From: Escherichia phage PhaxI
Sequence record: JN673056
Strand: one strand, 5' to 3'
DNA: 64,000 bases
In this document: in pieces, positions 8,429 through 12,675 of the stretch
Layout: each line of letters begins with the position of its first letter
How positions within the stretch are numbered: the stretch's first letter is position 1
Position numbers and translations under genes: made by a program
Notes under the pieces: model-generated
What the model was told of the DNA's origin: nothing
Seen by the model: only the letters and a program-made list of their open reading frames with translations
Databases searched by the model: none

Positions 8429-9217
8429 TTACCGGGCATTTAGCATGTTACTTGAGCCTGAACCATCAACAGTCAGAGTACATTTCCCGGTGTTTGGGCA
8501 AGATTGCAACACCATGTTATATTCGTGGTGTAAATATTCAGGTGTCAGAGATGTCGTCAGTTTCTGATTCGCCCTGGCTTCTTGATCTGGAATTTCAACG
8601 TTCTTTCTTGCTGTATCCAAACGTTTGTCGGCCAGGACATTATCGCGGATAGATTGCTCAATCGAAGGATCTGTCAGCGCCTTTTTCACCAACACACGTG
8701 TGATTGTGAACATGCCAGGCGCAGCAGTTTCCAATTGCTGCTGGGTGCGTTCCTTGATCATCTTTTCTAACTCAGCCCGTTGGGTGTGAATTGTCATAGA
8801 ATCCAAAGAGGAAACGGCGTCCATCGTTGAGGATGCTGCGGCGGTTTTAACCAGGTTGAATCCCACCGCTATCGTGCCGTCACCGAGTTCAGCGCTCTGA
8901 CCTGCAAATTTGGTATGGAACCAAGGAACCTTCGCGACGTTCGGTGTGTAATAAACGTCCACATCCAGATCTTCCAAGGTCAGGTTGTCTTTGGCCTTTG
9001 GCGTCATTTTGGTCAGACTCACAACGGCTTCTTTGGTCGTGTAAACATCCACGCTTGAAACAAAGCTGGTGTAGATCCCCGCTGTTACAGGGTTCATGTC
9101 TACTTCACCCCATTGGGTGTGAACGCCGACATTACCTTCATCGATAACGCCACCACAACCAGAAAGTAGACTTGCAGCCAGAACCATAATTGCACCAAAC
9201 ACCAATTTCTTGAACAT
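8429..9217 (-). CDS. SPFH (band-7/stomatin-prohibitin-like) domain lipoprotein
   Basis: Signal peptide plus lipobox MMFKKLVFGAIMVLAASLLSGC; SPFH-like N-terminal motif VIDEGNVGVHTQWGEV and later AKDNLTLEDLDVDVYYTP resembling the TKDN..v.vd..v.yr block; start overlaps stop of upstream membrane protein gene. Confidence 0.5.
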   Translation of the reverse strand: MFKKLVFGAIMVLAASLLSGCGGVIDEGNVGVHTQWGEVDMNPVTAGIYTSFVSSVDVYTTKEAVVSLTKMTPKAKDNLTLEDLDVDVYYTPNVAKVPWFHTKFAGQSAELGDGTIAVGFNLVKTAAASSTMDAVSSLDSMTIHTQRAELEKMIKERTQQQLETAAPGMFTITRVLVKKALTDPSIEQSIRDNVLADKRLDTARKNVEIPDQEARANQKLTTSLTPEYLHHEYNMVLQSCPNTGKCTLTVDGSGSSNMLNAR

Positions 9218-9435
9218 CAATGTACCCCTTCAAAAATGTAGATATATGCACCCAATGTGAGTGCGGTTATTGTAACCGAAGAAATCAGCAGCAGGAAAGT
9301 TACCCTCACCCGTTTACGCCAACGTTTACTTCGGTAGATTTTAGTCTCTTTCAAGTATTTGAAAAAGAAAAATAAAATGAATGTTGAAATTACGAATATG
9401 AACAGATAACGGATTAACCCGATCATATTTCCCAC
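9217..9435 (-). CDS. small two-helix membrane protein (72 aa)
   Basis: Two hydrophobic segments (LIRYLFIFVISTFILFFFF and FLLLISSVTITALTLGAYIYIF) separated by basic loop KRWRKRVR; translationally coupled to the SPFH lipoprotein gene. Confidence 0.45.
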   Translation of the reverse strand: MGNMIGLIRYLFIFVISTFILFFFFKYLKETKIYRSKRWRKRVRVTFLLLISSVTITALTLGAYIYIFEGVH

Positions 9436-9743
9436 CCTGTGCTACGCAGATGATCAAAATAATCGTTGAGTTCGTCAATATCTTCGATATCAACCCAACG
9501 ATCATCCAGACCCATATCATTTAGATCTTCTTCAGTCAGATCATGTTGGTATATTTGAACGCCGGAAGCATTACAATAATCCGGCTTGATGTTATTGTTA
9601 TACTGAAACAGGTCGTAATCAGCCAGAGTATTCTTCAGGCGCTGCGCTTCTTCAAATGTTGGAACCTCAACATGAAAAGCGATCCCAGGAACCTGGGGAA
9701 TATGCCAAACGCGAAATTTAAGTTCAAACGGTTTATTCGACAT
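9423..9743 (-). CDS. hypothetical acidic protein (106 aa)
   Basis: ORF in operon context; acidic C-terminus DDRWVDIEDIDELNDYFD. Confidence 0.4.
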   Translation of the reverse strand: MSNKPFELKFRVWHIPQVPGIAFHVEVPTFEEAQRLKNTLADYDLFQYNNNIKPDYCNASGVQIYQHDLTEEDLNDMGLDDRWVDIEDIDELNDYFDHLRSTGWEI

Positions 9744-10690: not shown

Positions 10691-10747
10691 AATATAGATC
10701 TCTCAAATAAAAGGCGGTTTAATAATAACCGCCCTAATGTTATTGAA

Positions 10748-11589: not shown

Positions 11590-11910
11590 TTATCTTTGAT
11601 TTCCAACGAAATTAGTCGCTATTTCCCGACACATAGTCAGATCTTTGATCGTCTGTTTGCTATTGTCGGCAGCGGACTCCATCATTGACAAATCCAAAGC
11701 ATTCTCTATTTGATCCACGCTGTAGAGATCAAGGCGTTTCAACTCACCTTCATAATCTGATAAAAGGATGGATGTATCTTTATCATCAGGGTGAAATTGT
11801 TGATAAGTAGACAACCAGGCCGCACACATATTCAATTTGCTAGCCGGAGTTGCCACAACTTGGAATGATGCCAACATAGAAAAGAATAACAAGAATATTA
11901 TGTTTCTCAT
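11590..11910 (-). CDS. small secreted protein (signal peptide)
   Basis: N-terminus MRNIIFLLFFSMLASFQVVA looks like a Sec signal peptide. Confidence 0.4.
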   Translation of the reverse strand: MRNIIFLLFFSMLASFQVVATPASKLNMCAAWLSTYQQFHPDDKDTSILLSDYEGELKRLDLYSVDQIENALDLSMMESAADNSKQTIKDLTMCREIATNFVGNQR

Positions 11911-12596
11911 CTTTCGTTCTCCTTCATCATATTATCACAGTCAATTCTTGTTTGCTTGAGTTCACGGGCAAGCCTGGGATCATCAAGATTGACAGACAAA
12001 TTAGTGGAAAGATCTTTCAAACCATTCTGAACACGGTCTTCATAATAATGATCATTTTCCACCAGCCATGCTCTCAGGCCAAGGGCGCGAGTCCGCCATT
12101 CCTTTTTCAAACGTCGATCTGATTCTTGATCAGCACTGTATTCAAATACTCGGATACATTGGTTGCCATCATTGATGAGATCCAGCTGACGTCGGCCAAC
12201 CTGCACACCTTTTTGTAATGCTGGAGAAGGAAGAGAACGGCACTGTCTTACGGTCATTCGTCCTTGTGTGCCCATACGACCAGTCATGATGAGATCGCCA
12301 GCCTCCATGCCTCCTCGATTAAATTCTTTGTCGTTCATATATCCTTTCAGGTTGAACGCGCCTTGCTTATATCGATTAAACTCAATACCAGCATTTACAA
12401 CGGCATCTGTGACATTACCTGTGGCCCAGAGTTCAGCAAAGTTCTCTATGGAACCAGTTTTGTCTATAGCGACGGCTTGGGAGAACCCAGCACAGTAGGA
12501 AAGATCAGACCACAGTTTTTCACCTGTGGAGTTCAGCTTGGCGGTGGCAGGAAGTGCCAGACCAGCCAGCACAACCCCGATGATTAAACGTTTCAT
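11907..12596 (-). CDS. secreted/periplasmic protein (229 aa)
   Basis: Start set to ATG 12594-12596 with SD AAGGAG giving MKRLIIGVVLAGLALPATA signal peptide; track ORF extends further upstream to 12761. Confidence 0.45.
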   Translation of the reverse strand: MKRLIIGVVLAGLALPATAKLNSTGEKLWSDLSYCAGFSQAVAIDKTGSIENFAELWATGNVTDAVVNAGIEFNRYKQGAFNLKGYMNDKEFNRGGMEAGDLIMTGRMGTQGRMTVRQCRSLPSPALQKGVQVGRRQLDLINDGNQCIRVFEYSADQESDRRLKKEWRTRALGLRAWLVENDHYYEDRVQNGLKDLSTNLSVNLDDPRLARELKQTRIDCDNMMKENER

Positions 12597-12675
12597 GGTG
12601 ATTCTCCTTATTTCATTGGATAAAATGATAGGGCTGTCACCATGTTGAGTAAAGGGTTTCAATAAACTATCGTAT

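Follow-up and report, generated by a model that had tools for sequence, protein, structure and literature searches.

Why does a bacteriophage encode a lipoprotein of the SPFH (Band 7) family, and does such a protein work alone? The question is raised by a locus of Escherichia phage PhaxI (JN673056), of which a stretch of 64,000 nucleotides (nt) was read (the window; coordinates are positions in it unless another record is named) and in which the gene of an SPFH lipoprotein follows a short open reading frame (ORF) for a small two-helix membrane protein, here called the hairpin. Virus-encoded SPFH proteins are widespread (PMC1524935; PMC13239085). SPFH ORFs of the T4-like phages 44RR (ORF098c), Aeh1 (ORF064c) and RB43 (ORF139c) were reported in 2006 (PMC1524935), the genome paper of phage PhiSH19 named the SPFH domain in 2011 (PMC3220722), and the gene of the genus Kuttervirus has been annotated as SPFH or as lipoprotein in papers of 2011 and 2024 (PMC3220722, PMC10892097). 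In a paper of 2026 on the N4-like phage GIB1, it "remains unclear" why a phage genome should carry an SPFH lipoprotein (PMC13239085). Also, the BFVD database holds SPFH proteins of many phages and of giant viruses. GenBank names for the gene studied here are "SPFH domain band 7 family protein," "lipoprotein" and "regulator of protease activity," and the same gene is present with 95 to 97% identity in PhiSH19, Vi01 and CBA120 (orf126) and as gp200 in Sajous1. The SPFH/lipoprotein annotation is already public; the new element is the hairpin, a conserved, phage-specific partner, and our literature search turned up no paper that deals with the small partner gene or with a function. Our answer, tentative though preferred to the others considered below, is that the hairpin and the lipid-anchored SPFH protein constitute an accessory phage module, a periplasm-facing ring or cage with its membrane partner.

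Both ORFs were found on the minus strand where the initial annotation had placed them, and both SPFH-like motifs quoted there are present. Read from a TTG codon, the SPFH ORF spans 8429..9220 and has the 263 amino acids reported at first, but the next codon is an ATG (9217-9215), which is the likely start because the homologues begin with MFKK or MKK; the product then has 262 amino acids. Its N terminus reads MFKK-LVFGAIMVLAASL-LSGC21, followed by GGVIDEGNVGV. The lipobox LSGC fits the pattern [LVI][ASTVIG][GAS]C, stands behind a K-K n-region and a hydrophobic h-region, and is retained in nearly all close homologues and throughout the phage clade described below. By this pattern and by its conservation across homologues, the protein is predicted to be exported by Sec and lipid anchored, as had been proposed.

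The assignment to the Band 7 family, which had been made from the letters of the sequence, was borne out by profile and fold searches. Pfam Band_7 (PF01145) matched residues 24-206 with an E value of 1.5e-12 and 48.4 bits (gathering score, 23.6), and the domain was present in all of 36 close homologues bar one truncated copy. The protein also matched phrog_200 ("lipoprotein") with an E value of 1.7e-54. An AlphaFold2 model built with 22 homologues had a mean predicted local distance difference test (pLDDT) score of 80.8 and consisted of a strand-rich SPFH domain that begins at Cys21 (strand start at residues 21-25), helices 184-223 and 226-243, and two short terminal strands; with two Gly between Cys21 and the first SPFH strand, it had essentially zero disordered linker. 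When the model was compared with the PDB by using Foldseek, 62 matches with E values of <=0.001 were obtained, and the best 50 of the 62 were exclusively members of the SPFH family or major vault proteins. Nearly full-length alignments were obtained with prohibitin (6.6e-14), erlin, stomatin, HflK/C, QmcA and flotillin, and the C-terminal part of the phage protein aligned with the segments that make up cage wall and cap in solved SPFH complexes. We conclude from sequence and model that the protein belongs to the Band 7 superfamily, with a predicted SPFH alpha/beta fold, long helices and a C-terminal strand. Single-protein searches of NCBIfam, PADLOC and PDB sequences gave nothing useful. A Cys240/Cys246 pair was found in 19 of the 38 phage-clade members and in none of 131 bacterial relatives. 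The protein itself has been detected by mass spectrometry in a preparation of phage Sajous1 (PMC10892097).

The small ORF has 72 codons for amino acids when read from a GTG at 9435 (9217..9435) and 69 when read from an ATG at 9426. The shorter form is better supported, with phrog_11680 (E = 1.4e-46) aligned from residue 4 and the GenBank proteins fitting it as well; of the 72-residue protein with two transmembrane (TM) segments described initially, the two helices stand, and the length is probably 69 residues. AlphaFold predicted two long helices (2-27 and 34-68). Both are hydrophobic, and they are joined by a strongly basic loop, KYLKETKIYRSKRWRKRVR. Over 31 hairpins, the loop carried 4.9 Lys or Arg residues on average, compared with 0.65 and 0.23 in the tails, and from the positive-inside rule and this distribution the loop is predicted to be cytoplasmic, with both short ends in the periplasm and the protein in the inner membrane. 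The periplasmic tails comprise only a few residues (0-11 by automatic helix assignment). The hairpins are barely alignable with one another (mean column identity, 29%; no invariant column) and are linked by chains of pairwise similarity, and the architecture is retained down to 10 to 25% sequence identity. An acidic residue near the C terminus looks conserved in 26 of 31 hairpins. In PhaxI, however, the Glu-Gly codons GAA GGG (9225-9231, minus strand) also serve as the Shine-Dalgarno sequence for translation of SPFH, and because of this overlap the Glu was not relied on as a contact residue.

A profile of 24 hairpins retrieved zero PDB chains at E values of <=10, YbbJ of 8z5g included, and comparison of the 24 members with Pfam gave only scattered weak matches to unrelated membrane families. 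The hairpin as a truncated NfeD protein or a known holin was therefore dropped as a candidate. That the ORF is a real gene and no chance ORF follows from substitution rates: within Kuttervirus, the synonymous rate (dS) of the hairpin gene reached 0.27 while the nonsynonymous rate (dN) was 0.006-0.013 (dN/dS, about 0.03-0.05). The SPFH gene gave dS values of up to 0.45, a dN of 0.014 and a dN/dS of about 0.03. Both genes are thus under strong purifying selection.

If the two genes belong together, they should stay together in phages that are otherwise different. Relatives were gathered from viral contigs, species-representative bacterial genomes and metagenomes, and when 22 distinct phage loci were inspected by eye, 20 proved to have an ORF for 55-72 amino acids with two helices directly upstream of the SPFH gene. 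The gap between the genes in loci other than PhaxI ranged from -4 to +28 nt, and the hairpin was upstream even where the identity of the SPFH protein to the PhaxI copy was 36 to 45%. In a neighbor-joining tree of 169 SPFH proteins, rooted on a bacterial TM form (midpoint rooting had split the phage group), all phage copies except L033 fell into one clade of 38 leaves, all with a lipobox. The hairpin gene was upstream in 33 of the 36 evaluable members of this clade, a count that includes one locus with an extra gene between the two and two loci missed by the second automatic pass. Outside the clade, it was found with 0 of about 126 bacterial relatives; the count is zero because three automatic flags proved to be C termini of larger membrane proteins. 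Indeed, automatic detection of hairpins produced false positives (C termini of ABC permeases and of a larger membrane protein) as well as false negatives, and calls were checked by eye. Two loci from "bacterial genomes" did have a hairpin, the Massilia one evidently on a phage contig (MazG, DNA polymerase exonuclease subunit). The sequences behind these counts are related, and the counts are not independent trials.

The SPFH subfamily is common in Beta- and Gammaproteobacteria (152 genome loci), where some of the proteins are anchored by an N-terminal TM helix and others by a lipobox; in both forms, the anchor meets the SPFH domain at one and the same position. No conserved neighbor gene was found in the bacterial relatives, and no neighbor other than the hairpin was common to the phage groups. 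Guilt by association with other genes was given up as a guide to function: gp17-like, rIIA/rIIB, RNase T-like exonuclease, rI and prepilin-like ORFs each adjoin the SPFH gene in some lineages only. Two TM-anchored phage SPFH genes were examined (L033 and RB43 ORF139c), and both lacked the hairpin. Since the pairing outlasts wholesale change of sequence and of genome context, we take it as strong evidence that the pair, whose genes are inherited together, is a functional unit; the functional link proposed at the outset has come out stronger than first claimed. The likeness to bacterial operons of a membrane protein and an SPFH protein, also proposed, holds for the architecture but extends neither to the OB-fold of NfeD nor to a conserved bacterial partner.

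The junction of the two genes is tight (Table 1). The TGA of the hairpin gene (9219-9217) and the ATG of the SPFH gene have base 9217 in common (TGATG), and the Shine-Dalgarno sequence GAAGGGG stands 7 nt upstream of the ATG, within the last codons of the hairpin gene; the overlap and the translational coupling noted in the initial annotation are thus confirmed. The ATG of the 69-amino-acid form, in turn, overlaps the stop codon of a gp17-like gene (ATGA) directly upstream (9423-9743, minus strand), which is translationally coupled to the hairpin gene and whose product matches PF17420 ("superinfection exclusion gene product 17") with an E value of 1e-49. A comparison of neighbors across phage groups revealed that this gene adjoins the pair in Kuttervirus only.

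Table 1. Features of the hairpin-SPFH locus in the PhaxI window
Feature	Position	Strand	Evidence
Hairpin mini-protein gene, 69 amino acids	9217..9426	-	ORF, phrog_11680, GenBank homologues, model helices, dN/dS
SPFH/Band 7 lipoprotein precursor gene, 262 amino acids, stop codon included	8429..9217	-	Pfam, phrog_200, AlphaFold, Foldseek
Signal peptide with lipobox LSGC	9155..9217	-	Sequence, lipobox conservation in homologues
Cys21, predicted lipidated first residue of mature protein	9155-9157	-	Lipobox
SPFH (Band 7) domain, residues 24-206	8600..9148	-	Pfam envelope and model secondary structure
C-terminal helices 184-223 and 226-243 and terminal strands 248-261	8432..8668	-	Model; alignments to cage-forming SPFH chains
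Coupling junction: Shine-Dalgarno GAAGGGG (9231-9225), then TGATG	9217..9231	-	Sequence

Is the pair essential? In Salmonella phage STP55 (L195, 2450-2701), a single in-frame deletion fuses codon 17 of the hairpin to about residue 197 of the SPFH protein and thereby destroys both genes at once, and in the records of Liang dang 541 and BRM 13314, the match is limited to the C-terminal quarter of the SPFH protein that STP55 retains. In phage "bering" (L196, 1201-1967), the SPFH gene is broken and split in two. Because some isolates have deleted or broken the pair, we regard it as accessory and nonessential. STP55 and bering also have an extra gene, for a 102-amino-acid LysM-domain protein, between the gp17-like gene and the hairpin.

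The PhaxI allele of the SPFH gene is itself unusual. Compared with that of its nearest relative, Salmonella phage SS9, 15 of the 19 differences in a 2-kb region fall inside the gene, where they span 8431-8645 and also occur at 9011 and 9120. Ten replace another base by G on the plus strand, C>G and T>G transversions among them. Nearly all are nonsynonymous, whereas the differences from SS9 elsewhere are mostly at third codon positions. Conserved columns are hit by R33H, R210P (inside a long helix), A241P (20 of 21 relatives have Ala) and I249T, and a 1-nt insertion at 8434 alters the last residues from NVGK to NAR. These differences represent either a local sequencing error or a decaying allele.

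How might the two proteins act together? The SPFH protein would oligomerize, as HflK/C, prohibitin, stomatin and QmcA do, and the resulting ring or cage would lie flat on a membrane and face the periplasm, and since only two Gly separate the lipid from the first strand, the ring would sit directly on the membrane. The hairpin would be its dedicated membrane-embedded partner. It would supply the TM segments that TM-anchored relatives carry themselves, and it would either tether the assembly to the inner membrane or itself be surrounded by that assembly. In early or middle infection, the assembly could fence off a patch of the host envelope. The roles named in the initial annotation (membrane microdomains, control of FtsH, superinfection exclusion) are conjectural. 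Of the roles conceivable for such a structure, the most likely is that the inner membrane of the infected cell is protected or partitioned, in connection with lysis timing or with resistance to membrane-triggered abortive infection; exclusion of superinfecting phages ranks second and interference with FtsH-type quality control third.

The periplasmic face of the inner membrane is favored as the site of the assembly because helical membrane proteins reside in that membrane, because the TM-anchored bacterial relatives must be there and swap freely with lipobox forms, because the hairpin occurs only with lipid-anchored phage copies, and because a disordered linker of the kind that aids Lol extraction is absent. 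Deletion of such linkers re-routes three outer-membrane lipoproteins of Escherichia coli to the inner membrane (bioRxiv 10.1101/2021.01.05.425367). Moreover, the switch between TM helix and lipobox at the same SPFH junction suggests, as far as sequences can, that both forms are placed equivalently.

Several points weigh against this proposal. The residues at +2 and +3 after Cys21 are Gly, and the Asp at +2 that signals retention in the inner membrane is absent; by the "+2 rule" of E. coli, a residue other than Asp at this position predicts Lol transfer to the outer membrane (PMC5727369). An HflK/C-like protein (25-35 kDa) of a Pasteurella prophage was found in outer-membrane vesicles (PMC9872710). 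Oligomerization is suggested by the fold of the model, and a profile of 22 SPFH family members retrieved zero solved SPFH chains from the PDB sequences. The evidence for pairing is genomic throughout, the tree is crude with a short stem for the phage clade, and bacterial lipoprotein forms exist that have no hairpin. Also, the conservation of the Glu near the hairpin C terminus may in part be at the nucleotide level and not that of a contact residue.

A more far-reaching version of the proposal, which we consider doubtful, is that the pair is a phage-specific, minimal two-component SPFH nanocompartment of the periplasm. Here, a cage on the outer face of the inner membrane would be built around an oligomer of its own hairpin or around host machinery (FtsH, a site of DNA entry or a holin raft), and phages from several unrelated lineages would employ it as a portable device for takeover of the host envelope or for exclusion.

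Among the explanations that compete with a ring and its partner, superinfection exclusion in two layers survives best, although we regard it as unlikely. The lipoprotein would then sit in the outer membrane, like T5 Llp and Cor, while the hairpin would act on its own in the inner membrane, as does Imm of T4, which is also small and has two membrane helices; the two layers would block adsorption, tail penetration or DNA entry of later phages and so shield the infected cell. Gly at +2 leaves the lipoprotein without a Lol avoidance signal (rule in PMC5727369), the Pasteurella prophage protein occurs in outer-membrane vesicles (PMC9872710), and the pair lies in a region of the early or middle type, overlapping and directly downstream of the PF17420 gp17 homologue; moreover, it is lost in some isolates, as is typical of exclusion genes. 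The gp17-like neighbor, however, is specific to Kuttervirus, and searches of Pfam, PHROGs and PADLOC gave no match to known exclusion proteins. A place in the outer membrane also disagrees with the TM-anchored SPFH relatives, which must sit on the inner membrane, and strict co-inheritance together with translational coupling favors one complex over two separate blocks.

If the phage cage mimicked HflK/C, it would compete with or replace HflK/C at the periplasmic side of FtsH and thereby alter the turnover of membrane proteins, be they the host's or the phage's. Phages do target host proteases, as exemplified by lambda CIII and FtsH, and HflK/C is, to our knowledge, the only periplasm-facing SPFH pair in E. 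coli and has the orientation predicted for the phage protein. HflK/C-FtsH structures were indeed among the Foldseek matches, but prohibitin, erlin and stomatin matched as well or better, so the resemblance is generic to the family. JGI names relatives of the protein "regulator of protease activity HflC," but these names are automatic COG labels. The hflC model TIGR01932 was matched by the N-terminal 40 residues only, with an E value of 0.051 and 12.4 bits against a cutoff of 134.4, and a score so far below the cutoff rules out that the protein is an HflC or HflK orthologue. Since, in addition, the hairpin has no counterpart in the HflK/C-FtsH system, we consider this mimicry quite unlikely.

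We give similarly little credence to a device for lysis timing, in which a holin- or antiholin-like hairpin would be kept inactive or concentrated by the SPFH cage so as to adjust lysis timing or lysis inhibition. In size and in having two helices, the hairpin is like small holins, but its predicted topology with both ends out, its basic cytoplasmic loop and its uncharged C-terminal tail are the opposite of what is found in class II holins, and the sole match to a holin was a weak one, to LydA, with an E value of 0.03 in 1 of 24 members. Genes with lysis-related names do occur next door: the TM-anchored SPFH gene of RB43 directly follows rI and rI.-1, the pair on L003 and L004 directly follows rIIA/rIIB, and a gene that PHROGs labels "Rz-like spanin" is directly upstream of the pair in other Ackermannviridae. 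Adjacency to r genes is confined to few lineages, however, and in PhaxI the pair lies outside a lysis cassette with no late promoter motif nearby.

That the two genes are mere neighbors, the SPFH lipoprotein acting alone next to an unrelated or nonfunctional filler ORF, would fit the bacterial lipoprotein relatives that manage without a hairpin and the missing RefSeq annotation of the small ORF in SS9, but it is highly improbable in view of the presence of the hairpin gene at 33 of 36 phage-clade loci amid neighbors that otherwise all change, a hairpin dN/dS of about 0.03-0.05, a hairpin design preserved at 10 to 25% identity, and the start/stop overlap or short gap in most loci.

The surroundings of the pair in PhaxI agree with the ring-and-partner proposal. 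The 2-kb region around the pair is 99% identical in nucleotide sequence to Salmonella phages SS3 and SS9 and matches 174 phage records, nearly all of them Kuttervirus (Vi01-like, Ackermannviridae). Every gene of the region is on the minus strand, and genes for a helicase, an HU-like protein, RNase H, a gp55-like late sigma factor, SbcCD and an Alt-like ADP-ribosylase surround the pair, which stands among same-strand genes for replication, recombination and host takeover. A scan for sigma-70 promoters and terminators gave 15 promoter-like sites when 9.4 were expected and was not informative. The T4 late promoter motif TATAAATA occurs once in the 64 kb, far from the pair and not in its vicinity, and a literature search for Kuttervirus transcriptomes turned up nothing relevant. 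Because the promoter scan was uninformative and the late motif is far from the locus, we infer the expression class from gene context, which points to a region of the early or middle type.

Upstream of the pair, a strong terminator-like hairpin in the DNA (10711-10735, minus strand; a 9-bp stem, then a T run) lies between genes for 264 and 222 amino acids and may mark the beginning of a transcription unit to which the gp17-like, hairpin and SPFH genes belong. Farther upstream, the minus-strand gene at 11590-11910 is labeled "Rz-like spanin" (phrog_3843). Its 106-amino-acid product has a signal-like N terminus and two Cys, no embedded lipoprotein ORF was found in it, and we regard the label as doubtful. 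It is preceded by a gene for a secreted protein of 230 amino acids (11907-12599, minus strand). In other Ackermannviridae (L007 and L017), these two genes are directly upstream of the pair, and in Kuttervirus four inserted genes part them from it. In SS9 (NC_049458; L001, 7218-7422), the hairpin ORF is intact and has no RefSeq annotation; other records list it as a hypothetical protein, e.g., CBA120 orf127A.

In other phages, the neighbors differ. An uncultured phage (L003, 2612-5827; L004, 3-2540) has the pair directly after an rIIA-sized gene and rIIB (PF26926). There, the gene caller had missed the hairpin ORF; on the same contig, a membrane-anchored coiled-coil protein is encoded just downstream of the SPFH gene, and a Bax inhibitor-1 family protein is encoded as well. 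Prepilin-like ORFs adjoin three SPFH copies. One small ORF immediately downstream of an SPFH gene (L024, 4857-5090) encodes the prepilin-type N-terminal motif KGFTLIELLIVVAIVG, and another in the same position (L025, 4897-5067) encodes a similar hydrophobic segment; in 44RR, ORF097c ("N-terminal methylation motif") is numbered beside the SPFH ORF, ORF098c (PMC1524935). RB43 ORF139c (L197, 15590-17243) is a "lipoprotein" in RefSeq, yet it has an N-terminal TM anchor and lacks the lipobox Cys. The lysis-inhibition genes rI and rI.-1 immediately precede it, and the 230-nt gap upstream of it contains no hairpin ORF. The rI, rIIA/rIIB, gp17-like and prepilin-like neighbors are weak hints that indicate nothing more specific than "accessory envelope genes."

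What would be gained from an understanding of this pair? SPFH cages have been solved only recently (HflK/C, prohibitin, stomatin, erlin, flotillin and QmcA), and their effect on the enclosed membrane is debated. The two-gene phage version, with about 260 plus about 65 amino acids, lipid anchored and nonessential, could serve as a compact SPFH model; natural deletion alleles are at hand, and the pair is carried by easily grown Salmonella and E. coli biocontrol phages. For phage biology, a role would be assigned to a pair that is conserved across Ackermannviridae and many uncultured phages of Proteobacteria. Should the nanocompartment exist, it would represent a hitherto undescribed functional class of phage genes, and no natural SPFH system available for study would be smaller. 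Should the pair turn out to be merely an accessory membrane protein system, the gain would be a better annotation, since the small ORF is absent from some RefSeq records and the label "lipoprotein" has been applied to TM-anchored copies too. We see in the pair a variant of the theme "SPFH protein plus dedicated membrane partner," unsurprising to the specialist, but tidy and testable.

How does the pair compare with known systems? In layout, it is like the spanins Rz/Rz1, with the gene of an inner-membrane protein followed by an overlapping lipoprotein gene. However, the hairpin lacks a periplasmic coiled coil, and the lipoprotein is a folded protein of 241 amino acids and not a short, proline-rich o-spanin; a two-component spanin was therefore rejected. 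Neither spanins (Rz/Rz1) nor the exclusion proteins T5 Llp, Cor and T4 Imm/Sp were found to be similar by sequence or by Pfam and PHROGs profiles. The PADLOC models gave zero matches for either protein, and the PHROG labels are "lipoprotein" and "unknown function." A class II holin or pinholin was rejected on the basis of the N-out/C-out topology that the basic loop and near-neutral tails of the hairpin predict, as against the N-in/C-in topology and charged cytoplasmic C terminus of that class, with LydA as the only, weak match.

Among SPFH genes annotated in phages and other viruses, neither a hairpin partner nor a function is named in the sources. The only phage-borne SPFH protein with experimental data that we found in the literature is PM0222 of a Pasteurella multocida prophage, studied as a virulence factor of the lysogen (PMC9872710); it is of similar size (25-35 kDa) and is described as HflK/C-like.

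The SPFH-NfeD operons (QmcA-YbbJ, PDB 8z5g; archaeal stomatin-NfeD) have in common with the phage pair an SPFH gene cotranscribed with the gene of a small dedicated membrane protein. The phage partner has 55-69 amino acids and no OB-fold NfeD domain and matches nothing in Pfam or the PDB, and an SPFH-NfeD operon was ruled out since the hairpin has neither the OB-fold nor a match to YbbJ. Moreover, QmcA faces the cytoplasm, unlike the predicted orientation of the phage SPFH protein. With HflK/HflC, prohibitin, stomatin and erlin, finally, the phage protein shares the predicted order of SPFH1/SPFH2 domains, long helices and a C-terminal strand (Foldseek E values of 1e-9 to 1e-14), and as in HflK/C and the other cage formers, the membrane anchor stands immediately before the SPFH domain. 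Compared with these cage formers, its helical region is shorter and its sequence very divergent; and where HflK/C has TM helices and a pair of SPFH genes, the phage has a predicted lipid anchor and a single SPFH gene.

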